From: Sphingomonadales bacterium
GTDB taxonomy: Bacteria; Pseudomonadota; Alphaproteobacteria; Sphingomonadales; Sphingomonadaceae
Direction: 5' to 3'
Assembly (NCBI GenBank): GCA_043750535.1
Contig: JAYVBJ010000043.1
Coordinates: forward strand, 104,674 to 168,673
Length of the DNA stretch: 64,000 nucleotides
Part shown: piece after piece, positions 3,705 to 63,748 of the stretch
How positions within the stretch are numbered: position 1 is the first letter of the stretch
Layout of the letters: every line of letters starts with the position of its first letter
Translations under genes and position numbers: made by a program
Notes under the pieces: model-generated
Seen by the model: the letters and a program-made list of their open reading frames with translations, nothing else
Database searches by the model: none
Told to the model about the DNA's origin: nothing

Positions 3705-4304
3705 TTATGCAACCGCCCTTTTCAGCCTTTCGACAAGTCGTTCGCGTGCGGCCATTACATCAGCACGCCGGTCTCCCAGCACATGTTCCACCAACCGCGC
3801 GCGATTATGCGCCAACAATGCCGTCGGCGCCGAAATTTGGCGGTCGCCGATCACTTCTTCTGCATAACCAAGTTCGGACAGCAGAATCTCTTCATAGCGG
3901 GCCACTGCACCTGCCCAGCGCCGCGCCGCAGGAGCCAATTCAACCGCCGCCAACACCCCGTCCAATGCGCTGTAAAGCTGCGGATAAGCGTGCCCTTCCG
4001 GCAGGCTAGCCGCAGTCAGCGCCGTCACCCAATCAATTGCCGCCACCGCCAATGGCTCGCCCAATAAATGCGCACGGCTATGTTCGGGCTCTGCGCTTAA
4101 CGCAGGCAATTGCCCCGATATGCGCGCCCGCCAATCGCCCTTGATAACATTGCCGGGAATTAAGACCGGCCGCAAATGCCGCCCCCGTGCGCCTTGCACA
4201 TAGCCCGCCATCAATCCATGATCCGCCGTCATAGCGCGAACGATGGCTCCCGCTTCGCCATGAGGGCGGACGGCACAGACGATGGCTGATGCGGTGATTT
4301 GCAT
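3705..4304 (-). CDS. recO: DNA repair protein RecO
   Basis: N-terminal OB fold 'AIVCAVRPHGEAGAIVRAMTADHG', 'LPEGHAYPQLY'; recO-leuB synteny. Confidence 0.9.
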   Translation of the reverse strand: MQITASAIVCAVRPHGEAGAIVRAMTADHGLMAGYVQGARGRHLRPVLIPGNVIKGDWRARISGQLPALSAEPEHSRAHLLGEPLAVAAIDWVTALTAASLPEGHAYPQLYSALDGVLAAVELAPAARRWAGAVARYEEILLSELGYAEEVIGDRQISAPTALLAHNRARLVEHVLGDRRADVMAARERLVERLKRAVA

Positions 4305-52588: not shown

Positions 52589-53010
52589 TGACGAATTTAG
52601 AATGGCCGGCTGCCCATGCGTTGCGCGAGCCGAGTTATCTTGTTTGCATAGCCGAAGAGTAGCGCAGTTGCATTAATTTCAAGCTAAACGCTGCCTTCAC
52701 CAGACGTGACGCCGACTTTAAACCCAGCCCATTTTTGGCAAATTGTCATGAAACTGTTTATAGAAGGAGCGCGATCTCAAATTGGTCGCTATGCTGCTAC
52801 CAAAGTTGCGTCCGGTTTGCCAGACGCTGCCGACTGTCCGGTTTTGGCCTGCGCCTGAGGTAAACTGCCATTAGTTCACAGGAATCATTCTCACTTGGTT
52901 TACGATCGATCATCACAGGTTATATCTCCCTTGAACAAAACTGGCCTCTTCCAACCAACTCGGAGAATGTAAAATTGTAGTGGAAAGCGATCCGCAAAAA
53001 CATGCACGTT

Positions 53011-53036
53011 GTAACCATCATCGGGTCGCCGACGAA
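53011..53036 (+). promoter_or_regulatory. ECF sigma promoter motif
   Basis: GTAACC-N16-CGAA. Confidence 0.8.
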
Positions 53037-53080
53037 TGGACCGATAGTTACTGCAACACCTATGACAAAAAGGACTGAAA

Positions 53081-53419
53081 ATGCGCGCTGTGTTCACACT
53101 TTCCATACTTGCTTTTGCGGCATTGCTTGTCGCTCCACCGGCTTTAGCGTCGGGCACATCTGGCGGAGGTTATGGCAGCGGCAGCGGCAGCGGGTCTTAC
53201 CCTGCGACCACGCGCGACCCCGCAGCCGAGGCTTATGCCCGCGGCAAATCTATGGTCAAGAAGCGCATTGCTTGCAAGAAATGTGCTTATCCCCAAGGGG
53301 TGCAGGATACACCGACCGCGCAAAAAGTTGCCGCTAGTGTTCGTTCTGGTGAATTCGCGCTGAAGACTGCCGAGCGCGAACAGGTGCTTTACTATCTAGC
53401 TGAGCGTTTCGGGGCATGA
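53081..53419 (+). CDS. Small secreted CxxC protein (cytochrome-c-like pattern, no His ligand)
   Basis: Signal peptide ALA, Gly/Ser tract, RGK..IACKKCAY; paralog at 62616; RBS aagga. Confidence 0.8.
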   Translation: MRAVFTLSILAFAALLVAPPALASGTSGGGYGSGSGSGSYPATTRDPAAEAYARGKSMVKKRIACKKCAYPQGVQDTPTAQKVAASVRSGEFALKTAEREQVLYYLAERFGA

Positions 53420-53456
53420 TTGAAGCCTGCTTCGTCTGTTAGATTGTCCTGACACT

Positions 53457-55454
53457 GTGGCTGAAACGCGGTCTTTGGCTTCGCTTGCTTTGCTGTTGAC
53501 TGCGATCGCAGGGCTCGTCTTGCTATCGCAGCAGCGTGAGCCTGATGTCTTGACCTATATGTTGCTGCTAGCAGGTTCGGCGGCGGCGATCACGGCTATG
53601 CTGTGGCGCGTTGAGAATATCAGCGCACCTGTGGTCTTCGTCGGGGCGCTGGTGGCCCATGTCATTACTCTGGTGGGTGCGCCTGCATTTGAAGATGATT
53701 ATTTCCGCTTCATCTGGGATGGTTGGCAAACGCTGCAAAAAGGCACACCTTACGGTGTTGCGCCCGATCAGTTTTTTGCCGATGATAGCGTATCCCCTGC
53801 GTTGAAATCGATTTTGGACGGCGTCAACAATCCTGAATATCCGACGATTTACGGGCCGGTTTTGCAAATCAGCTTTGCCGTGGCATTTGCACTTTTTGGG
53901 CCAAATCCGCTTGGTCTCCAACTGCTGTTTGCGGGCGTAAATCTGCTGTTGATTGGCGTGCTGTTGCGACGACACACACCCGCGAAGGTGGCACTTTATG
54001 CATGGAGCCCGCTCGTCATTGCAGAAACGAGTCTGCATTTGCATCCTGACGGGTTGCTGGGTGCGGCGCTGTTTGTAGCGATCCTGGCAGGTCAAAAGCG
54101 GCCCATATTAGCGGGCCTATTTTTCGGGCTGGCCGCTGGCATCAAGCTTGTGGCTCTGGCGGCGTGGCCGTTGCTGCTGCGTTTGCGTCTGCGGGCGCTT
54201 GTGACTGCGATTGCGTCGCTTGGCGGCCTTTATCTGCTGTTTCTCGTTCAAGGCCAAGGTGCAGGTTTTGATTCAACGGCGACGTTTGCCAAGCTTTGGC
54301 ATTTCAATCCGCTGTTGTACGAACCGTTGTTTCAGCTATCTGGATGGCAATCAGGACGCATGCTTGCGTTGCTGATTGCCGGATTACTGGTGCTGTGGCT
54401 CCACGCCCGCAGTCGTTCGATCGACGATGTTCCGTTGGCGGCCATTTTTGGCATCATCTTGCTGTTCGCCCCAGCGGTAAACAGCTGGTATCTGCTGTGG
54501 CTGCTTCCCTTTGCGGTGGGCCGGACGCAGATTTGGCCCTTTGCCGCGACGATAGCATTGCCATTTTCTTATCTGACAGGGCTAAATCTGGGCGATCCGG
54601 AATTGGAGGCATTTGCCGTTCACCCGCTGGCGCGCATCGCAGAGGTAACGATCCTGTCGTTGGCCCTCATCCATGATTGGCGGACCAACCGCCGTGCAAA
54701 GCTGAACGGCGAGATTGCGCTTACATCACCGCTGGCGGCGCCCAAGATCGCGGTAATCATGCCCGCGTTGAACGAGGAAGCTGCAATCGGCGGCGTCATT
54801 ACGAGCATCCGCAAGGCACTGCCCGAAAACTTGAAGCAAGTGATTGTCGTCGATAATGGCTGCACCGACGACACTGCTGCGGTCGCAGTGGCTAACGGCG
54901 CGATGGTCGTTACCGAAGCCCAGCGGGGCTACGGCGCTGCCTGCCTGACTGGCATTGACTGGCTCGATAAGGATATCGACATTGTCCTGTTTCTTGACAG
55001 CGACGGTTCCGATGTCGTGGCGGATGCGCCAAAGATCATAGCACCGATCACTGCAGGCAAAGCCGATCTTGTCATTGGCTCGCGTTCGCTGGGTGAAATG
55101 GAACGCGGCGCGATGACCGTGCCCCAGCGATATGGCAATTGGCTCGCGCCGCTGTTGGTTCGGCTGATTTGGGGTGTGCGCTATACCGACCTTGGACCGT
55201 TCCGGGCGATCCGGCGAAGCAGCCTGCATGCGCTTATTATGCAGGACCGCGACTTTGGCTGGACCATCGAAATGCAGGTCCGCGCGGCGAAGCAAGGATT
55301 GCGGACATTGGAGATACCAACCGGCTATCGACGCCGCATCGGTATTTCGAAAATTTCAGGCACTATCGACGGCGTGGTTAAAGCTGGTGTCAAAATTCTG
55401 TATGTGATTGGCCGCGAAGCCTTTGGCGATTTTGATGCTGTTCGGCGATCATAG
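53457..55454 (+). CDS. Fusion of a polytopic GT-C (GT87/DUF2029-like) domain and a GT2 polyprenol-phosphate glycosyltransferase domain
   Basis: N-terminal 'EDDYFRFIWDG..NNPEYPTIYGP' plus many TMs; C-terminal 'PALNEE..VVDNGCTD..RGYGAAC..DSDGSD..TDLGPFRAI..GWTIEMQ'. Confidence 0.85.
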   Translation: MAETRSLASLALLLTAIAGLVLLSQQREPDVLTYMLLLAGSAAAITAMLWRVENISAPVVFVGALVAHVITLVGAPAFEDDYFRFIWDGWQTLQKGTPYGVAPDQFFADDSVSPALKSILDGVNNPEYPTIYGPVLQISFAVAFALFGPNPLGLQLLFAGVNLLLIGVLLRRHTPAKVALYAWSPLVIAETSLHLHPDGLLGAALFVAILAGQKRPILAGLFFGLAAGIKLVALAAWPLLLRLRLRALVTAIASLGGLYLLFLVQGQGAGFDSTATFAKLWHFNPLLYEPLFQLSGWQSGRMLALLIAGLLVLWLHARSRSIDDVPLAAIFGIILLFAPAVNSWYLLWLLPFAVGRTQIWPFAATIALPFSYLTGLNLGDPELEAFAVHPLARIAEVTILSLALIHDWRTNRRAKLNGEIALTSPLAAPKIAVIMPALNEEAAIGGVITSIRKALPENLKQVIVVDNGCTDDTAAVAVANGAMVVTEAQRGYGAACLTGIDWLDKDIDIVLFLDSDGSDVVADAPKIIAPITAGKADLVIGSRSLGEMERGAMTVPQRYGNWLAPLLVRLIWGVRYTDLGPFRAIRRSSLHALIMQDRDFGWTIEMQVRAAKQGLRTLEIPTGYRRRIGISKISGTIDGVVKAGVKILYVIGREAFGDFDAVRRS

Positions 55455-55483
55455 CGAACTGATTTCCAAAAAATGCCCGGGTT

Positions 55484-55509
55484 GAAACCTTTTACCAAAG
55501 CGAGCCGAA
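55484..55509 (+). promoter_or_regulatory. ECF sigma promoter motif (one mismatch)
   Basis: GAAACC-N16-CGAA. Confidence 0.65.
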
Positions 55510-55549
55510 TTGCAGTCGACCTCAGAGCTTTTCGAAAGATGCATTCCCC

Positions 55550-55780
55550 ATGAATAAAATCTTGATTGCCGCAGCGATCATCACCCTTGCTTTCCTGCTC
55601 TACCGCTTTGGCCTGGCCATGCGGCATGGGCTGGGTCTCAACAAAATTTTGGGCACCGTTCACGCCTACCCCACGATGATAGAGGCAAATAAATTTGCCG
55701 CTGGTAAATGGAAAAAGGCTAATGCTCCCGAATGGGCCTTCACATGGCTGGAAAAATTCCATAGCTGGCGGCAGGGATAA
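55550..55780 (+). CDS. Small hypothetical protein with an N-terminal TM
   Basis: Follows the promoter motif; stop abuts the RBS (taaggag) of the next gene. Confidence 0.55.
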   Translation: MNKILIAAAIITLAFLLYRFGLAMRHGLGLNKILGTVHAYPTMIEANKFAAGKWKKANAPEWAFTWLEKFHSWRQG

Positions 55781-55788
55781 GGAGAGAG

Positions 55789-56214
55789 ATGATGAAGGCA
55801 CTGTCATTGTTATTTTTACGGGTTTCAACGGGCCTTCTCTGCATGATCTGGGGACTGATCCGTATTGGCAAACCGTCGATCGGTGCCATGGTCAACGGCA
55901 AATATTATGGCGGCATCCTGTCGGGTGAGACAGCGCAATATATCTGGGGTGGATTTCTGTTAGTCGTCGGCCTGCTCACCATATTGGGCTTGTTGCGGCG
56001 CTATGCCTATCCGCTGCAGTCAGCGATCCTGTGTGTTGGCGCGCTTGGTATCTGGAAATACTTGCTTGATCCGCTGGGCCTGTGGTTGCTTGACGAAAAA
56101 AGCGCGCAGGTATTGTTCTTCCCGTCATTGGGCATGGCCGCTGCAACGCTTGTGCTGATTGCCTTCCGCGATGATGATCGCATCGCTCTTGATCGCAAAA
56201 TTGGCCGCCAATGA
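55789..56214 (+). CDS. DoxX-like membrane protein
   Basis: 'LLFLRVSTG..WG', 'VGLLTILGL.RR', about 4 TMs, 'IALDR'. Confidence 0.75.
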   Translation: MMKALSLLFLRVSTGLLCMIWGLIRIGKPSIGAMVNGKYYGGILSGETAQYIWGGFLLVVGLLTILGLLRRYAYPLQSAILCVGALGIWKYLLDPLGLWLLDEKSAQVLFFPSLGMAAATLVLIAFRDDDRIALDRKIGRQ

Positions 56215-56798
56215 CTGTAGTACCGCGACTTGTCCTGTTCGCGCGCTACCCGGTCGCGGGCGAATGCAAGACCCGTTTGATCCCGGCGTTGGGGGCTGAA
56301 GGTGCCGCATCACTGCACCGCAAACTCACCGCACGCACCATCTGTGTGCTGCGCGCGAGCGGTGCTCCCGTCACACTTGCTTATACTGGCGCGGTACAGG
56401 ATGATTTTGAGCGCTGGCTGGGTAGCGACATCGCGTTGGTTGAGCAGGTGGACGGCGACCTAACCGACAAGTTACTCGCATGCCTCAACCCAGCACCCTT
56501 GATATTTTTCGGTGCTGACACACCTGATCTTGGCGCAAGTCATGTCGCGGCGGCAATAGCAGCCCTGCAGAAGCATGAAGTCGTGATTGGCCCGGCGGAA
56601 GATGGCGGCTATTATCTGATCGGAATGCGCAATGCCTTACCCCAATTGTTTGTCGACATGCCGTGGAGCACAGAACAGGTGCTGCCCGAAACACTGGCGC
56701 GGCTGGCGCGGCTTGGGATCACGCCTTTGCTTCTAGAAACATTATCCGATTGCGACCGGCCCGATGACCTTGCCCGCTGGCCAGACCTTTCACCATGA
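56211..56798 (+). CDS. TIGR04282/DUF2064 family (CofC-like) transferase
   Basis: FARYPVAGECKTRL, QVDGDL, GADTPDL, VIGPAEDGGYYLIG, PWST, DCDRPDDL. Confidence 0.9.
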   Translation: MTVVPRLVLFARYPVAGECKTRLIPALGAEGAASLHRKLTARTICVLRASGAPVTLAYTGAVQDDFERWLGSDIALVEQVDGDLTDKLLACLNPAPLIFFGADTPDLGASHVAAAIAALQKHEVVIGPAEDGGYYLIGMRNALPQLFVDMPWSTEQVLPETLARLARLGITPLLLETLSDCDRPDDLARWPDLSP

Positions 56799-57523
56799 TC
56801 CGTGTTACCATCCTCATCCCAACATATAATGAAGAAAAAGCGCTGCCCGAAACGCTGGCGTCGCTTGCCCGCCTCTCTCCTCCACCCAATGAAATCTTGT
56901 TGGTCGACGGCGGGAGTGAGGATCAAACGCAGGAAATTGCGCGCGCCGCAGGGATAAAAACTATCGAAGCCCCGCGCAAAGGCAGAGGTACGCAGATCAA
57001 TCATGGCGTTCAATCGGCCACAGGCGATGTCATCTGCGTGCTGCACGCAGACTCGATATTACCCGAAGATGCCGTTGCGGTGATCCGCGCCACCATGTCA
57101 GACACGCGGATCGCACTTGCAAGCTTTACGCCGCGCCTTGCCGGACCGAGCGGAACCCGGTGGGGCTCGACATTCCACAACTGGATCAAGACATGGTATG
57201 CCCCTTTGCTCACCCGGCCACATTTGTTTTTTGGCGGAGTGCGGCTGCTGTTCGGTGATCATGCTATGTTTTTCCGGCGCGAACATTTCCTTGCCGTTGA
57301 TGGCTGTGATGAGCGTCTCGTCGTCATGGAAGAGGCTGACCTGTGCATCAAATTCGCGCGCTTTGGCCGAACAAAAATGGTGCCGCGCTGGGTTTGGACA
57401 TCGGACCGGCGGATCACCGAATGGGGCCGATGGCGGGCGAATTGGATTTATTTCAAGGTTGGAATGATGTGGGCCCTTGGCGCACGTGCACGGTTGGCGG
57501 AACATTATCCGGATGTGCGGTGA
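56795..57523 (+). CDS. TIGR04283-like GT2 glycosyltransferase
   Basis: IPTYNEE, VDGGSED, GRGTQIN.G, LHADS, FGDHAMF, MEE, TSDRR. Confidence 0.88.
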   Translation: MIRVTILIPTYNEEKALPETLASLARLSPPPNEILLVDGGSEDQTQEIARAAGIKTIEAPRKGRGTQINHGVQSATGDVICVLHADSILPEDAVAVIRATMSDTRIALASFTPRLAGPSGTRWGSTFHNWIKTWYAPLLTRPHLFFGGVRLLFGDHAMFFRREHFLAVDGCDERLVVMEEADLCIKFARFGRTKMVPRWVWTSDRRITEWGRWRANWIYFKVGMMWALGARARLAEHYPDVR

Positions 57524-57535
57524 TTGCGGTTTACT

Positions 57536-58582
57536 TCAACAGCAGGACGCCGCCTGCGCCTCTTGCGACACATCATAGGGTAGCCCGCCGCCACATCCGG
57601 TGAACACGCCGAAATGGCGGCTGAAATCGCCGATGAAGTCGAAATGCGAGGCAAAGCGAGTGCCAGCCAGCATTTTCCAGCTGTTGCCGCATACCGGGAA
57701 CGCCCGGCCTGCTTCTATCATATGATATTTATCAAGGGTGAAGACGCGTTCTTCGCCGATGATGTCACCGCGATAGACGACGGCCTGGCCATAATCTTCG
57801 CATTCCGGCTCCAGCCCGGCCAGCTTGAACAATCGAGAGGTGGCAGAGAAGAAGTGGATACCATCGAGCTTATCGGCAATTTCAGTATCACCAATGCCCA
57901 GCGGGCGGTCTTTCACAAGTCGCGGATCATCGAAACCGGCGCGCTTGGCATGGGCGAGAAAATCACCCCAATAGAGCGCACCCGACAGGCACTCGCCATG
58001 TAGCACCGGATCGGCAAGCAAATGCACAGGCACGCGGCGATCAGAATAGACGTCGGAAAAATACATCTCGCCGCCCGGTTTAAGCAGGCGATGCGCAGCC
58101 TCAAACACTGCGGCCTTATCGGCGACCAGATTAATCACACAGTTGGAGACGATCACGTCAAAGCTTTCCGGTTCCAGATCCAGGCTGCCCAGTTGCTCAA
58201 CATCGCCCTCAATGAAACGCACATTGCTCTTGGCATAGCCAAAACGATCCCGGTGCCAGTCCAGATGAGCGTTCGCAACGGCCAGCTGTTCCGGGGTGGT
58301 GTCTACGCCGACAACCTCACCGCTCTCTCCCACCAATTGTGCAAGGAGATAGGCATCCTGCCCCGACCCTGAACCTAGATCGAGAATACGCGCCCCTTCT
58401 ATGGCTGATGGAGCCACAAGCCCACACCCATAATAGCGCGCCTTCACCTCTTCATGCACATTGGATAGCGCACGGCGGACATACGGCGGCGGCGCATCGG
58501 CCATGGTGCAGGCATCGGTGAGCAGGTCGCCAGAGCCTTGCAACACTTCACCATAATAGTTGCGGCTGTTTTCGATGTTCAT
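57536..58582 (-). CDS. arsM: As(III) S-adenosylmethionine methyltransferase (ArsM/AS3MT-like)
   Basis: YYGEVL..DL.TDAC, YYGCG, LDLGSGSG, SNCVINL, GECLSGALYW, C-terminal CC. Confidence 0.88.
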   Translation of the reverse strand: MNIENSRNYYGEVLQGSGDLLTDACTMADAPPPYVRRALSNVHEEVKARYYGCGLVAPSAIEGARILDLGSGSGQDAYLLAQLVGESGEVVGVDTTPEQLAVANAHLDWHRDRFGYAKSNVRFIEGDVEQLGSLDLEPESFDVIVSNCVINLVADKAAVFEAAHRLLKPGGEMYFSDVYSDRRVPVHLLADPVLHGECLSGALYWGDFLAHAKRAGFDDPRLVKDRPLGIGDTEIADKLDGIHFFSATSRLFKLAGLEPECEDYGQAVVYRGDIIGEERVFTLDKYHMIEAGRAFPVCGNSWKMLAGTRFASHFDFIGDFSRHFGVFTGCGGGLPYDVSQEAQAASCC

Positions 58583-58620
58583 TTAAATTTCCATTTGCTG
58601 GGTATATTATCAAAAAACGG

Positions 58621-58646
58621 TTCGTCTAAAACGATGTTTTTGTTAC
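58621..58646 (-). promoter_or_regulatory. ECF sigma promoter motif for arsM
   Basis: Minus strand GTAACA-N16-CGAA. Confidence 0.8.
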
Positions 58647-58673
58647 AGCATCAATGGCAGCAGGCCATGAAAT

Positions 58674-58699
58674 GTAACCTTTGAACGTCGGAGATCGAA
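58674..58699 (+). promoter_or_regulatory. ECF sigma promoter motif for the radical SAM gene
   Basis: GTAACC-N16-CGAA. Confidence 0.8.
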
Positions 58700-58707
58700 A
58701 CAGAGGC

Positions 58708-59670
58708 ATGAACCAGCCCATATCTCCATTCGCGCTTCAAGGCGCACATCCATTGTCACCGCAAAAATTTTCTGACCCGATTATGACGGCAAAAGGTGAG
58801 CTGCGGGCGCATGTCACAATGACTGGCCTGACTACCCTGTGGTTCAACACCGGCACCTTGTGCAATCTTTCCTGCAAAAGCTGTTACATCGAAAGCTCGC
58901 CGACCAACGACGCGCTTGTCTATATTAGCTTGGATGAGGTTCGCTGTTATCTTGATGAGATTGCCCGCGACGGACTAGCCACGCATGAGATAGCCTTTAC
59001 GGGCGGCGAACCGTTCATGAACCGGGAGATGATACCGATCATCCAGCTGTGCCTGGACCGTGGCTTTGATGTGCTCGTGCTATCGAACGCCATGCGCCCG
59101 ATGCAGCGGTTTGAACGCGAATTGCTGGCGCTGCATGGCCGCGAGCGTTTGACGATCCGCGTTAGCCTCGATCATCACACGCAAGAAGTGCATGAGGCGG
59201 AGCGCGGGCCAGATAGCTGGGACAAAGCGATGGGCGGCCTAGTCTGGCTCGGCAACAACGGCTTTGCCATTGCCGTCGCCGGACGCCATTTGGGTAATGA
59301 GGCAGATGCGGCGGCGCGAGACGGCTACGCCCAGCTGTTTGCCGACAATGGCCTGTCAATCAATGCGAATGATCCGACCCAGCTCGTGCTGTTCCCGGAA
59401 ATAGACGAAAACGCCGACATTGCGGAAATCTCCACCGGCTGCTGGGATATATTGAACATCAATCCTGCGAGCATGATGTGTGCGTCCAGCCGGATGGTGG
59501 TAAAGCGCAAGGACGAAAATGCCCCGCGCGTCGCGGCATGCACCTTGCTGCCCTATCAGGCGGATTTTGATATGGGCGCTACACTTGCCGAGGCTAGCCG
59601 CGAGGTGCGGCTCAACCACCCGCACTGTGCTCGCTTCTGCGTGCTTGGCGGGGCAAGCTGTTCGGCGTGA
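58708..59670 (+). CDS. Radical SAM protein with Cys-rich C-terminus (ArsS-like)
   Basis: CNLSCKSC, FTGGEPF, MMCASSR, HPHCARFCVLGGASC; ATG 58708 lies downstream of the promoter motif. Confidence 0.85.
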   Translation: MNQPISPFALQGAHPLSPQKFSDPIMTAKGELRAHVTMTGLTTLWFNTGTLCNLSCKSCYIESSPTNDALVYISLDEVRCYLDEIARDGLATHEIAFTGGEPFMNREMIPIIQLCLDRGFDVLVLSNAMRPMQRFERELLALHGRERLTIRVSLDHHTQEVHEAERGPDSWDKAMGGLVWLGNNGFAIAVAGRHLGNEADAAARDGYAQLFADNGLSINANDPTQLVLFPEIDENADIAEISTGCWDILNINPASMMCASSRMVVKRKDENAPRVAACTLLPYQADFDMGATLAEASREVRLNHPHCARFCVLGGASCSA

Positions 59671-59671
59671 T

Positions 59672-59697
59672 GTAACAAATCTCAGCGCCAGAACGAA
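59672..59697 (+). promoter_or_regulatory. ECF sigma promoter motif for the PiT transporter
   Basis: GTAACA-N16-CGAA. Confidence 0.8.
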
Positions 59698-59730
59698 CAG
59701 CTTGAAAACCCAAATTAATATGGAGTTCTC

Positions 59731-60720
59731 ATGCTGATCCTGCTTATCGCGACTGCCTTTTTTCTTTCCTTCAGCAATGGAGCTAACGACAATTTTAAGG
59801 GATTTGCGACCAGCTGGGGTTCCGGCTCACTCAGTTACCGGACCGCGTTAATCCTCTCCAATGTGGCGACTTTGGCAGGCGGTGTCGCCTCGATCATTAT
59901 TGCCGATGGCCTGGTTAAACAATTTTCAGGGCGCGGGTTGGTTGATGATGCTATTGTTGCCTCGACAGGCTTTAGTTTTGCCGCCGCCGCCGGGGCAGGC
60001 ATCACGGTGATGCTGGCGACACGTCTGGGCTTTCCCATTTCGACCACGCACGCACTGGTCGGCGGCTTGACCGGAGCAGGGCTGGCAAGCGGCAGCGCGC
60101 TGCAATGGGGGGCGCTCGGCAGTGGCTTCATGCTACCACTGTTAATCAGCCCACTCCTCTCGGCAACGCTTGCCTTTGCCATTTATGGCGGCGCAAGATT
60201 GCTGCAACGCCGATGGGTTCCAGTTTATGGAGGCGACTACCTCGTGCCTGAGAACGATGTCGAAAGCGGAAATCGAACGCTAACAAGCACGCATATCCTG
60301 TCGGCGGTGGCGATCTGTTTTGCCCGTGCGGTGAATGATACGCCAAAGCTTGCGGCATTGATGCTGGGCGCTGGAATATTATCATCCGTCAGCAGTGCCC
60401 TTGCCGTAACGGCTGCGATGATTGCAGGCGGCTGGCTTTTGTCGCGGCGTGTGGCGGAAACGATGAGCCTCAAAATCTCCACTCTCTCGGCGGAACAGGG
60501 CACTACCGCCAATCTTGTAACCGCAGGCTTGGTCCTTGCCGCAAGCCGGTTTAGCTTGCCGGTTTCCACAACCCATGTTTCGGTCGGCTCCATCATCGGC
60601 AGCGGAGCGGCGGCACGCACGCTTGATCTATCGACCGTCCGCAATGTCCTTCTGTCCTGGGTGGTTACATTGCCCTTATCAGCGATGCTCGCCGCCATCA
60701 TAAGATGGGTTATCCTCTAA
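59731..60720 (+). CDS. PiT family inorganic phosphate/anion transporter
   Basis: NGAND, GFPISTTHALVG, VNDTPK, LPVSTTHVSVGSIIG, SWVVTLP. Confidence 0.9.
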   Translation: MLILLIATAFFLSFSNGANDNFKGFATSWGSGSLSYRTALILSNVATLAGGVASIIIADGLVKQFSGRGLVDDAIVASTGFSFAAAAGAGITVMLATRLGFPISTTHALVGGLTGAGLASGSALQWGALGSGFMLPLLISPLLSATLAFAIYGGARLLQRRWVPVYGGDYLVPENDVESGNRTLTSTHILSAVAICFARAVNDTPKLAALMLGAGILSSVSSALAVTAAMIAGGWLLSRRVAETMSLKISTLSAEQGTTANLVTAGLVLAASRFSLPVSTTHVSVGSIIGSGAAARTLDLSTVRNVLLSWVVTLPLSAMLAAIIRWVIL

Positions 60721-61580
60721 AGGACGCGCCCGGCGACAGCATCAAGCCTTCCCATTAACTGCGGATCGCGTTTCGCCGGATCTGTAATCAAGGCAAAATC
60801 AAGGGCAGTGTCGATAGGGCTGGCGGCGCGTTGCAAGGGCAGCGATGCCGCCAAATGGGCAATCAGATCGCGGCCCTTTTCAGCATTGGCCGCCAATTGT
60901 GCGATGATCGCCTCGACCTCAACCGGCGCCTCATTCTCGCGCCAACAATCATAATCGGTGACCATACCGACCAGCGCATAAGGCAGCTCAGCCTCACGAG
61001 CGAGCTTTGCCTCGGGCATTGCCGTCATGCCGATGACATGTGCTCCCCATGCACGGTACATATGGCTTTCCGCACGGCTCGAAAACTGCGGCCCTTCCAT
61101 CGCCAGATAGGTACCCCCGCGATGAACATTTGCACCCGCCTTTTCAGCAGCGGTTGCGACATATTCTGACAGCCGCGGACAAACGGGATCGGCCATCGAA
61201 ACATGCGCGACCAGGCCATCACCAAAAAAGCTCTTTTCCCTTGCAAAGGTGCAGTCAATAAATTGATCGACGACGACAAAATCACCCGGAGCCATGTCTT
61301 CGGCAAGCGAGCCGATGGCCGAGATGGACACAATGTCGGTCACGCCCAACCGTTTCATCGCGTCAATGTTTGCACGGAAATTGAGCTGGCTCGGCCCCAA
61401 CACATGCCCCCGTCCATGGCGTGGCAGAAAGACGCATTCAACGCCGGAAACAGTTCCAGTTAACACCGCGTCGGATGGCGCGCCCCATGGAGTGGTCACT
61501 TCGACCCATTGCGGGTTTTCAAGCGCGTCGAGCTGATAAAGTCCCGAGCCGCCAATTATGCCGATTTTCCATTGTGCCAT
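60717..61580 (-). CDS. mtnP: S-methyl-5'-thioadenosine phosphorylase family
   Basis: GIIGGSGLY, TPWGAPS, PRHGRGH, EGPQFSSRAES, GMT, VTDYDCW. Confidence 0.92.
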   Translation of the reverse strand: MAQWKIGIIGGSGLYQLDALENPQWVEVTTPWGAPSDAVLTGTVSGVECVFLPRHGRGHVLGPSQLNFRANIDAMKRLGVTDIVSISAIGSLAEDMAPGDFVVVDQFIDCTFAREKSFFGDGLVAHVSMADPVCPRLSEYVATAAEKAGANVHRGGTYLAMEGPQFSSRAESHMYRAWGAHVIGMTAMPEAKLAREAELPYALVGMVTDYDCWRENEAPVEVEAIIAQLAANAEKGRDLIAHLAASLPLQRAASPIDTALDFALITDPAKRDPQLMGRLDAVAGRVL

Positions 61581-61590
61581 GCCTGATCCT

Positions 61591-61616
61591 TTCGAAACGC
61601 CGCGCCGACCGGTTAC
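61591..61616 (-). promoter_or_regulatory. ECF sigma promoter motif for the MTA phosphorylase
   Basis: Minus strand GTAACC-N16-CGAA, ending 10 nt before the ATG. Confidence 0.8.
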
Positions 61617-61648
61617 AATTGCCCACCGAAATAAATTATAGCCCTGCC

Positions 61649-61674
61649 GTAACTTTTAACTTCCTCCAATCGAA
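61649..61674 (+). promoter_or_regulatory. ECF sigma promoter motif for the DUF547 operon
   Basis: GTAACT-N16-CGAA. Confidence 0.78.
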
Positions 61675-61732
61675 AAGACAGCAAGAGCAATTCCCGGACG
61701 CATCGTTGGGGACAGGAAAAGGTGTTGCACAA

Positions 61733-62569
61733 ATGAAATATTCCAACGTCCATTCCAGCAACCGACACCTTGGGCGTCGGACCCTGCTGGGTGCGATCTC
61801 TGCTGTGTTGGTGCTTGGGGCGTGCTCAAAACAGACAACGAACACCGACCAGAAATGGACACAGGCTGGGACTGCATCCGAGACGATCGATCATGGCGTC
61901 TGGGATCAAATATTATCCAAATATGTAAAGGTCGCCGAAGATGGCGTGAACCGCGTTGATTATGCCGCGCTGAAAAAGGACGATGCTGCGGCGCTGACGC
62001 GCTACCTGGCCGCGTTGCAAGCGGTTGAGATCGAAAAATATCCGAAGAACGAACAGTTCGCATTTTGGGTCAACCTCTACAACGCTGCGACAGTCGACGT
62101 GATCCTAAAGAACTATCCGTTGAAATCGATCAGGGACATCGGCTTGCTTGGCCAAGGCCCGTGGAAAGCCAAAGCCGTGAAAGTCAGCGGCACGGATTTA
62201 TCGCTCGACGATATCGAACACGGCATATTGCGCCCTATCTGGAAGGATGTGCGCATCCATTATGCCGTAAACTGCGCATCCATTGGCTGCCCGAACCTCG
62301 CGCCCAAAGCCTATACAGCTGAAACGCTGAACGCGATGCTGGACGAAGCAGCGCAGTCTTACATCAACCATCCCCGCGGCTTTGCCCGGGTTGACGGCGC
62401 GCTCGTCGCGTCCAGCATTTTCGACTGGTACGTCGATGATTGGGGCGATCAGGCCGCTGTCCTTGAACATGCCCGCAAATATGCGTCGGAAAAGACCAAG
62501 GCCGTCCTGGGTGCCACCACCCAAATCGACAGCCATGATTATGACTGGTCACTCAACGACGCAGAGTGA
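61733..62569 (+). CDS. DUF547 domain lipoprotein (twin-arginine-like signal)
   Basis: RRTLL...LGAC signal; AFWVNLYNA, SLDDIEH.ILR, RIHYAVNCASIGCP, SSIFDWY, YDWSLN. Confidence 0.9.
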   Translation: MKYSNVHSSNRHLGRRTLLGAISAVLVLGACSKQTTNTDQKWTQAGTASETIDHGVWDQILSKYVKVAEDGVNRVDYAALKKDDAAALTRYLAALQAVEIEKYPKNEQFAFWVNLYNAATVDVILKNYPLKSIRDIGLLGQGPWKAKAVKVSGTDLSLDDIEHGILRPIWKDVRIHYAVNCASIGCPNLAPKAYTAETLNAMLDEAAQSYINHPRGFARVDGALVASSIFDWYVDDWGDQAAVLEHARKYASEKTKAVLGATTQIDSHDYDWSLNDAE

Positions 62570-62615
62570 CCGTCGCTAAACGCTTTCCCCCCAAGTCTCA
62601 GAAAGGTTTGTTACT

Positions 62616-62900
62616 ATGATAAAGTTAGGATTTGTTGTTTTTGGAGGAGTATTGCTCGCCCTCGCGTCTCCCGTCTTGGCCTCCGGCTCGATGGGCGGCG
62701 GTGCGCAGAGCGGCCAGCTTGGACAAAAAGTTTACCTGCAAAAGATAGCATGTTCAGGATGCCCGTTTGCCGGTGGCATCAAGACGCGTGATCAAAGAAG
62801 CATGGCTCTGGCAAAAATTGCGAGCGGCGAAATCAAGATGACCGGTTCCGAGATGAAAGCCGTGTCGACGTTTATCAATCGCCGGTTCAAGGGGCTTTAA
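62616..62900 (+). CDS. Small secreted CxxC protein, paralog of 53081-53419
   Basis: Signal peptide VLA, SGSMGGG, LGQKVY..KIACSGCPF, SGE, RF C-terminus. Confidence 0.8.
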   Translation: MIKLGFVVFGGVLLALASPVLASGSMGGGAQSGQLGQKVYLQKIACSGCPFAGGIKTRDQRSMALAKIASGEIKMTGSEMKAVSTFINRRFKGL

Positions 62901-62902
62901 TC

Positions 62903-63748
62903 ATGACTTTTCTCACAAAAGCCCTAGTTTCAGCCGTCGCACTTACTGCTTGCGTGCCAGCGGCATTCGCTAACGATATTTCCCCCTGGACGCCTGCCGA
63001 AGGTGGCGGCGAAGTGGAAATTTCCTACACGCGGCAGGAAGCCGATGAATTCAACCCCGGCGACGCCACCGCGCCGCTTCCAGAAGAGTTGACCCAAGAC
63101 AGCGTTTCGTTGTCGCTCAGCTATGGGATCAGCCAGCGGCTCGCCGCCGATGTAAAAATCGGATATGCGAAAAGCAGCTTTCTCACCGACCCCGGCCTTG
63201 CGCCGCAGGGCGGGCTTGACGGTTTAAATGATATCTTCGTCGGGCTTCGCTATAAGGCGCTCGACGAAGCCGATGGTGCGCCCTTTACGGCGACGCTGGG
63301 TGTTGCTGGCATTATCAATGGCGGTTACACCACAGGCGCATTACCAGCTATTGGCGACGGCGGTTCTGGTGGCCAAGTTGCCTTGGCGCTAGGTCGCAAC
63401 ATCGGCCCGTTCGCAATCAGCGGCGATATTGGTTACCGAACTCGCTCGAACAACATACCCGACGAAGTTTTTGGAGCGGTTAACGCGAGCATATCGCCGA
63501 CGTCGGGCATTTCGCTTTATGGTGGTATTTCGTTCGTGGATTCCACCAGCGGCCTCGACATCGGTGGCCCAGGCTTCTCGCCCGCACGCTTTCCTGAAGT
63601 CGAAGAGGATTATAAAATTTGGTCGCTCGGGGCCTCGGGGTCACTATCCGACCAGATCTCGGCCAACATAGGCTATGGGCAGAAATTCGATGGACGCAAT
63701 ACCGCGCGTAGCGAATTTTTCCGCATCGGTTTGGGCTATTCCTTCTAA
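62903..63748 (+). CDS. Outer-membrane beta-barrel / transporter-like protein
   Basis: Signal peptide AFA, alternating beta strands, 'GLNDIFVGLRY', C-terminal GLGYSF. Confidence 0.78.
   Translation: MTFLTKALVSAVALTACVPAAFANDISPWTPAEGGGEVEISYTRQEADEFNPGDATAPLPEELTQDSVSLSLSYGISQRLAADVKIGYAKSSFLTDPGLAPQGGLDGLNDIFVGLRYKALDEADGAPFTATLGVAGIINGGYTTGALPAIGDGGSGGQVALALGRNIGPFAISGDIGYRTRSNNIPDEVFGAVNASISPTSGISLYGGISFVDSTSGLDIGGPGFSPARFPEVEEDYKIWSLGASGSLSDQISANIGYGQKFDGRNTARSEFFRIGLGYSF

Follow-up and report, generated by a model that had tools for sequence, protein, structure and literature searches.

We analyzed a window of 64,000 nucleotides (nt) of DNA from a Sphingomonadales bacterium, corresponding to positions 104674 to 168673 of contig C43 in a 2.40-Mb, 65-contig metagenome-assembled genome (MAG) from sediment that is 87.7% complete. 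Eight copies of a two-box motif, GTAACC-N16-CGAA in its reference form, occur in an 11-kb island that encodes ArsM, the arsenite S-adenosylmethionine (SAM) methyltransferase, next to an uncharacterized radical SAM enzyme. It is highly probable that the eight sites are promoters read by the single ECF16 sigma factor of this genome (ECF, extracytoplasmic function), an ortholog of SigF encoded by contig C40. ArsM, the radical SAM enzyme, and the sugar-transfer genes of the island are thereby predicted to be, very likely, under the control of one membrane-sensed metal/oxidant switch. The identity of the motif, its statistics, the geometry of the sites, the sigma/anti-sigma locus, and the conservation and linkage in relatives are established in the following sections.

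Motif copies in the window and in the genome

The first-pass annotation of the window had reported seven copies of the pattern G(T/A)AAC(C/A/T)-N16-CGAA (GWAACH-N16-CGAA), each with a 16-nt spacer and oriented toward a gene start, and had noticed no copy in the other intergenic regions. Our search recovered all seven exact matches at the same coordinates (P1 to P7 in Table 1), and the exact pattern had no further copy anywhere else in the 64-kb window. The island total is eight rather than seven, the additional site (P8) being located 316 nt past the window end. In 100 dinucleotide-preserving shuffles of the window, the mean number of matches was 0.69 and the largest was 5; none of the 100 reached 7. 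Allowing at most one mismatch to GTAACC-N16-CGAA, eight matches were found in the window, including seven inside the island. The genome-wide scan that the first-pass annotation had proposed as a check (2.40 Mb, both strands) returned 33 matches versus ~23 expected from base composition, but 8 of these 33 were located within a single 11.3-kb stretch (Poisson P ~7e-12).

All eight island sites are intergenic, and each is oriented toward a gene. The two back-to-back divergent pairs mentioned in the first-pass annotation are both real (P3/P4 and P6/P7), with -35 boxes separated by 27 and 32 bp, respectively. The first box is an exact GTAACC at three of the seven window sites, differs at position 6 at three others, and is GAAACC at the remaining one. 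A T or a C precedes GTAAC at 9 of the 10 genome sites formed by the eight island copies and two copies in the sigma operon described below. The sequence common to the sites is limited to the two boxes and no repeat family overlaps them, indicating that the sites did not arise by the spread of a mobile element; a repeat origin was rejected on this basis. The GC content of the island (55.7%) is close to that of the rest of the window (54.2%), so there is no sign of recent transfer, and the possibility of a compositional island was likewise discarded. Sigma-70 promoters were considered as an alternative for the expression of the island genes and were not retained, since sigma-70-like sites occur in the island at background level only.

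The SigF-NrsF locus of contig C40

The motif is identical to the sigmaF-binding sequence of Caulobacter, GTAACC-N16-CGAA, which was defined by 5'-RACE (rapid amplification of 5' cDNA ends) and primer extension (PMC3511200), and it fits the ECF16 consensus (T/C)GTAAC-N17-CGAA (PMC8315932). The first-pass assignment to an ECF16/Caulobacter SigF-type promoter is thus supported by the published site, and also by the motif copies of the sigF-nrsF operon and by conservation in relatives (see below).

The first-pass annotation had further noted that the sigma factor is not encoded in the window and had suggested searching for an ECF16 sigma/NrsF-like pair. Such a pair was found. The genome encodes ~8 ECF-type sigma factors, and the assembly contains exactly one NrsF/DUF1109 gene, on contig C40 (E 8e-38, above the cut-off). 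The start of nrsF overlaps the end of a gene encoding a 174-amino-acid (aa) ECF sigma factor with Sigma70_r2 and r4_2 domains. Upstream from this pair, on the same strand, are genes encoding a secreted, Cys-rich DUF2282 peptide (BufA type), an enzyme of the MbnB/DUF692 type, and a DUF2063 protein. The operon order is bufA-bufB-DUF2063-sigF-nrsF, with a DoxX gene adjoining nrsF, and corresponds to the buf1-sigF-nrsF layout of Caulobacter (PMC11626156). Two motif copies were detected in this operon. The first (C40:23326, minus strand) is located ~100 nt before the ATG of the bufA-like (DUF2282) gene, and the second (C40:21288, minus strand) is situated 144 nt upstream from the ATG of the sigma gene, in the 3'-terminal part of the DUF2063 gene.

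The C40 NrsF has hydrophobic segments and is described as a six-helix membrane anti-sigma factor. It retains both conserved cysteines, which are C131 and C181 in NrsF and C129 and C179 in AbcS. Cys138 and Cys188 of the C40 open reading frame (ORF), which become residues 129 and 179 when counted from Met10, show no substitution when aligned to NrsF from loci L004 and L081 (see below). The C40 sigma factor is 39-47% identical to NrsF-linked sigma factors of relatives. The NrsF partner, the conserved gene context, and this level of identity provide indirect support for placing the protein in the ECF16 group.

Genome-wide extent of the predicted regulon

A position matrix was derived from ten sites, comprising the eight sites of the island and the two sites of C40, and the genome was rescanned without the constraint of the regular expression. 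The ten sites and one new site scored at least 19.6, all other positions of the genome scoring at most 16.6. The island and C40 operon sites scored alike and share GTAAC(C)-N16-CGAA boxes. The new site (C16:5165, minus strand; L085:1666-1691) is located 24 nt before a small membrane ORF of ~58 aa that overlaps the start of msrA, and this small-ORF-msrA unit is likely to be an additional member of the regulon. Genes encoding methionine sulfoxide reductases (Msr) are the most widely shared ECF16 targets (PMC8315932). With eleven sites retained by the rescan, about eight of the eleven predicted promoters of the C40 sigma factor serve the island.

The remaining genome matches to the regular expression mostly lie within long ORFs, as expected by chance. 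The match located before mgtE (C49:24911) had a low score and was treated as a chance occurrence. One GTAACA-N16-CGAA copy with a matrix score of 16.6 (C21:29675, plus strand; L084:1176-1201) is located 156 nt before a gene encoding a TonB-dependent receptor and may be either real or due to chance.

Conservation of the motif and linkage to sigma/anti-sigma genes in related loci

Searches with the radical SAM protein retrieved at least 594 relatives, and the best 80 loci (1.38 Mb) were analyzed. These 80 loci belong mostly to Sphingomonadales, Caulobacterales, and Rhodospirillales, the closest among them being from Novosphingobium and Erythrobacter MAGs (70-73% identity). Varying the spacer length provided a control: 60 matches were obtained with a spacer of 16 nt, compared to 21 with 17 nt and to 10-15 for each of the lengths 12-15 and 18-21 nt. 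The motif was found 39-53 nt before arsM in L005, L009, L016, L021, L022, L029, and L054 and before the radical SAM gene in L005, L012, L033, L036, L071, L074, L081, and L083. It also precedes DUF2064/GT2, DUF547, and small secreted protein genes among the relatives, in several genera; the counterparts of P7 upstream from DUF547 are found in L074 and, as a GTGACC variant, in L004. In the closest relatives, the boxes of the region between arsM and the radical SAM gene are kept and the 16-nt spacers have diverged. Cultured relatives that retain the motif include Aurantiacibacter rhizosphaerae GH3-10 (L054), at the arsM pair, and Qipengyuania aquimaris JCM 12189 (L039), at the pair serving the reductase and radical SAM genes.

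In 7 of the 80 loci (L004, L011, L012, L024, L074, L075, and L081), the radical SAM gene has an NrsF-family gene at a distance of no more than 10 kb, which adjoins an ECF sigma gene in each case. Less than one such locus was expected by chance (P ~2e-5). Locus L081 contains 11 motif copies, and its cluster is linked to bufA, DUF692, sigF, and nrsF genes. In L004 (667-692, 9935-9990, and 15581-15640), the closest relative (a Novosphingobium MAG), the cluster has its own sigF-nrsF pair at its head. Five of the six L004 sites have the form GTGAC(C/A)-N16-CGAA, the sixth being a GTAACC copy located within the end of a membrane glycosyltransferase gene (4065-4090). The GTGAC box may reflect co-variation of the -35 box with a specialized sigma paralog.

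A conserved motif copy is also present, in four relatives, inside the coding sequence of the cluster-linked ECF sigma gene, at L011:1831, L012:9519, L024:8806, and L075:8402 (all on the minus strand). These intragenic copies have the form GAAACCT(T/A)(T/C)GCCGA(C/T)CC...CGAA and are positioned to drive only the downstream nrsF gene.

The gene content of the cluster varies. Within 10 kb, ArsM was found in 18 of the 80 loci, MTAP (S-methyl-5'-thioadenosine phosphorylase) in 20, and DUF2064 and GT2 in ~45. In Qipengyuania (L039:7447-9980), as in related Erythrobacteraceae, a divergent motif pair has an SDR-type epimerase gene on one side and, on the other, an operon in which a gene encoding a 471-aa FAD pyridine-nucleotide-disulfide oxidoreductase precedes that of the radical SAM enzyme, with no arsM nearby. 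Thus, the conserved regulated core is not strictly tied to arsM.

Transcription units and genes of the island

The eight promoters define eight transcription units comprising about 14 island genes (Table 1). P1 precedes the genes for the small secreted protein and the 665-aa membrane protein, and P2 those for the two small membrane proteins, the DUF2064/TIGR04282 transferase, and the TIGR04283-like GT2 glycosyltransferase. P3, P4, P5, P6, and P8 each precede a single gene, encoding ArsM, the radical SAM enzyme, the PHO4-family transporter, MTAP, and a 134-aa protein, respectively. The DUF547 gene and the two following genes for secreted proteins (61733 to 63748) are likely to form one operon expressed from P7. 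A homolog of the 134-aa gene is located within the related cluster of L004. An exact GTAACC-N17-CGAA sequence, with a spacer of 17 nt, is present at positions 63410-63436 (minus strand) in antisense orientation within the gene for the 281-aa protein and is probably a chance occurrence.

Table 1. Promoter-like sites and genes of the island (coordinates of the window unless a contig or locus is given)
Feature	Position	Strand	CGAA to start codon (nt)	Description
P1	53011..53036	+	44	GTAACC-N16-CGAA; ATG at 53081; L005 counterpart precedes homologous small gene
Small secreted protein	53081..53419	+		112 aa; signal peptide; no Pfam family
Membrane protein, 665 aa	53457..55454	+		GT87-like N-terminal part fused to GT2 domain
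P2	55484..55509	+	40	GAAACC variant; ATG at 55550
Two small membrane proteins (lengths 76 and 141 aa)	55550..56214	+		Both kept in related clusters
DUF2064/TIGR04282 transferase	56211..56798	+		181.9 bits; above the cut-off of 134
GT2 glycosyltransferase, TIGR04283-like	56795..57523	+		175.5 bits; slightly under the cut-off of 182
ArsM, arsenite SAM methyltransferase	57536..58582	-		348 aa; four catalytic Cys conserved
P3	58621..58646	-	38	GTAACA-N16-CGAA; before arsM ATG; divergent pair 1
P4	58674..58699	+	8	GTAACC-N16-CGAA; before radical SAM ATG; near-leaderless; divergent pair 1; same layout in L005, with 9 nt
Radical SAM enzyme, uncharacterized family	58708..59670	+		320 aa; ArsS-related in N-terminal core only
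P5	59672..59697	+	33	GTAACA-N16-CGAA; before PHO4 ATG
PHO4-family anion (phosphate/sulfate-type) transporter	59731..60720	+		
MTAP, S-methyl-5'-thioadenosine phosphorylase	60717..61580	-		458 bits; cut-off 437
P6	61591..61616	-	10	GTAACC-N16-CGAA; before MTAP ATG; near-leaderless; divergent pair 2
P7	61649..61674	+	58	GTAACT-N16-CGAA; before DUF547 ATG; divergent pair 2
DUF547 protein	61733-62569	+		First gene after P7
Secreted protein, 94 aa	62616-62900	+		After DUF547
Secreted protein, 281 aa	62903-63748	+		After 94-aa gene
P8	C43:168989 = L002:990-1015	-	30	Before 134-aa gene past the window end

ArsM, the radical SAM enzyme, and arsenic chemistry

The first-pass annotation referred to the targets as arsenic-chemistry genes and proposed that they respond to an extracytoplasmic thiol or metal signal rather than to ArsR. 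The first part of this proposal holds for ArsM. The protein matches solved arsenite methyltransferases (5evj, E 4e-103; CmArsM, 4fr0, E 4e-78), and the four cysteines of CmArsM (C44, C72, C174, and C224) are all aligned. The NCBIfam ArsM models gave scores below their cut-offs for this protein. On the evidence of its sequence, the methyltransferase of the window is a genuine ArsM.

The designation was not confirmed for the radical SAM enzyme. The score against TIGR04167, the model for ArsS with its C-terminal Cys-rich domain, was 58.9 bits for a cut-off of 300, the match covering only model positions 3-151. Alignment with a true ArsS gave 26% identity over residues 41-195 only, the sequences being unalignable beyond. 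Canonical ArsS was therefore rejected as an identification for this gene, and databases label its family "radical SAM protein", nothing more. Among the sampled genomes of the phylum, a true ArsS, scoring above the TIGR04167 cut-off, was found in 73 of 151 and in none of those listed from the same class or family. The radical SAM family of the window may thus be the counterpart of ArsS in this class. Arsenic chemistry is thus established for one gene only, ArsM, and is plausible for the remaining genes of the island. MTAP could cleave a 5'-substituted 5'-deoxyadenosine.

The length of the radical SAM protein bears on the position of P4. The public gene call (P0001) is a 295-aa protein starting at Met26. 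Homologs with 80-84% identity align along the full 320 aa, indicating that the longer form, with its start at 58708, is better supported, as is the 8-nt gap that this start leaves after P4.

With respect to ArsR, searches with the Pfam model HTH_5 detected no match in the island and only two weak matches in the genome, on contigs C10 (27 bits) and C28 (below the cut-off). No match to ACR3 was found in the 87.7%-complete assembly. Two genes of the ArsC family are present in the genome (contigs C12 and C47). We infer that control is exerted by an ECF switch rather than by ArsR, which is consistent with the lack of an island ArsR, the weakness of the HTH_5 matches, and the lack of ACR3.

Proposed mechanism and alternative explanations

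By analogy with Caulobacter, Brucella, and Bradyrhizobium, NrsF, with its six membrane helices, would hold SigF inactive at the membrane until its two cysteines are affected by a thiol-reactive signal in the periplasm and the sigma factor is freed. Arsenite would be a further candidate signal in this bacterium, beside Cu, Cd, Cr(VI), and hypochlorous acid (HOCl) or reactive oxygen species (ROS), which are the ECF16 signals documented elsewhere. RNA polymerase associated with the freed sigma factor would bind to (T/C)GTAAC(C)-N16-CGAA and begin transcription a few nt downstream. The eleven sites would then fire together, leading to the expression of the bufA-bufB-DUF2063-sigF-nrsF operon (from two promoters), of the small-ORF-msrA unit, and of the eight island units, with ArsM, the radical SAM enzyme, MTAP, the PHO4 transporter, three glycosyltransferase-type genes, DUF547, and several small exported proteins as the targets. 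The mRNAs for the radical SAM enzyme and MTAP would be leaderless or nearly so. The positions of the transcription starts, the dependence on the C40 sigma factor, and the nature of the inducing signal are the inferred parts of this scheme.

Several observations weigh against promoter recognition by the C40 sigma factor. No RNA sequencing run was found to contain positions 53000-62000 of the window, which are present in only five DNA runs of sediment metagenomes from two studies. The short distances downstream from P4 and P6, 8 and 10 nt, require leaderless or near-leaderless mRNAs. The regular expression alone is weakly specific at the scale of the genome, with 33 matches found for ~23 expected, so that single weak variants, such as the GAAACC copy at 55484, are less certain. 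Among the 80 loci, the motif was not found in many from Rhodospirillales and Reyranella that contain the same radical SAM gene, indicating that the link between the motif and the cluster is lineage-restricted. Finally, the assembly is only 87.7% complete and may lack a second ECF16 pair that serves the cluster specifically.

This second pair provides the only serious rival explanation, in which an unassembled sigma/NrsF pair reads the ECF16-type sites of the island and the bufferin-linked SigF of C40 is not the driver. Relatives do provide precedents, since L004, L011, L012, L024, L074, and L075 have a sigma/NrsF pair beside the radical SAM cluster, the cluster-linked sigma factors of these loci share no more than 30-47% identity with the C40 sigma factor, and the GTGAC box at five of the six L004 sites hints at specialized paralogs. 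We nonetheless consider this explanation improbable: a single NrsF gene was found in the assembly, the island and C40 operon sites have the same boxes and similar scores, and the cluster-linked pair of L081 is itself the bufferin-linked one.

Alternatively, the motif might be bound by a conventional transcription factor, the genes being transcribed with another sigma factor. The DUF2063 protein, a product of the sigma operon with a putative DNA-binding domain, would be a candidate for this role (PMC3511200). This is very improbable in view of the asymmetry and strict directionality of the motif, its fixed spacing reminiscent of -35 and -10 boxes, its location 8-58 nt before start codons, and its identity to promoters mapped by 5'-RACE for ECF16 sigma factors; in addition, the island has no conspicuous sigma-70-like promoters. 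Although a short degenerate pattern is expected ~23 times in the whole genome, an origin of the cluster of matches in chance, in base composition, or in a repeat element present in several copies is effectively refuted by the shuffles (0 of 100 reaching 7 matches), the density of the sites (P ~7e-12 for 8 matches in 11.3 kb), their location (all eight intergenic and correctly oriented, none overlapping a repeat), and the preference for a 16-nt spacer in the 80 related loci.

A more specific extension of promoter recognition by the C40 SigF appears doubtful at this stage. In Sphingomonadales and Caulobacterales, SigF-NrsF would be a sensor of trivalent arsenicals, or of a similar thiol-reactive metalloid, acting via the periplasmic cysteines of NrsF and replacing ArsR in the control of arsenic biotransformation. 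It would switch on ArsM and, together with it, an ArsS-like radical SAM enzyme, MTAP, and a series of transferases for the synthesis and export of an envelope glycoconjugate containing arsenic. If true, this would be the first arsenic pathway under the control of an ECF sigma factor and a second route, independent of TIGR04167, to arsenosugar-type compounds.

Comparison with known systems

The switch and the promoter are already known, and what appears to be unreported is the target set, which is conserved and unusually large. The regulons known for ECF16 sigma factors are small, with bufferins in response to copper and Msr enzymes in response to oxidants. Most of the predicted promoters of the C40 sigma factor would instead serve ArsM and an uncharacterized pathway involving a radical SAM enzyme, glycosyltransferases, and MTAP. 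This wiring recurs in several genera, and the cluster at times includes the sigma/anti-sigma genes themselves. It would give regulatory access to a widespread cluster of unknown product, point to likely inducers, and, thereby, offer a route to switching the pathway on in order to identify this product. It would also provide a case of arsM outside ArsR control, which bears on the prediction of arsenic methylation in sediments. In the literature searched, we found no paper linking ECF16 or NrsF with arsM or with this gene cluster; one paper on Cupriavidus reported that arsM is not RpoD-dependent.

The island resembles the ArsM-ArsS arsenosugar pathway (TIGR04167, TIGR04282, and TIGR04283) in that a true ArsM adjoins a radical SAM enzyme and in that a TIGR04282 transferase scoring above the cut-off and a TIGR04283-like transferase scoring slightly under its cut-off are present. 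It differs from this pathway by the radical SAM enzyme, which matches ArsS only in the core. In contrast to ars operons controlled by ArsR, the island contains no ArsR and is apparently controlled by an ECF sigma factor rather than by a metalloregulatory repressor.

The BcrS-AbcS system of Brucella melitensis, EcfF-OsrA of Bradyrhizobium, and SigF-NrsF of Azospira (PMC8315932) have in common with the system described here the promoter consensus and the anti-sigma cysteines C129 and C179. Their regulons include a methionine sulfoxide reductase gene, which is represented here by msrA with its high-scoring site. These systems govern the repair of methionine in the periplasm (MsrPQ and a Met-rich scavenger) under HOCl or ROS and, unlike the regulon predicted here, contain no arsenic-methylation or radical SAM/glycosyltransferase genes.

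Another close parallel is with the ECF16 prototype, SigF-NrsF of Caulobacter crescentus/vibrioides (Kohler et al. 2012, PMC3511200; PMC11626156). Both systems have the GTAACC-N16-CGAA promoter, a sigma gene followed by a gene encoding a DUF1109/NrsF six-helix anti-sigma factor with two conserved cysteines, and a linked, motif-bearing bufferin-type operon (DUF2282-DUF692(MbnB)-DUF2063) with a DoxX gene nearby. They differ by the location of the sigma gene, which is here on a separate contig from the main target island, and by the nature of the targets, since ArsM, the radical SAM enzyme, MTAP, the glycosyltransferases, and the PHO4 transporter are predicted targets here and none has been reported as a target of SigF. 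The Caulobacter regulon is small, its eight genes forming three units (buf1, buf2, and yedY), whereas 8 of the ~11 promoters predicted here would drive a single 11-kb island.

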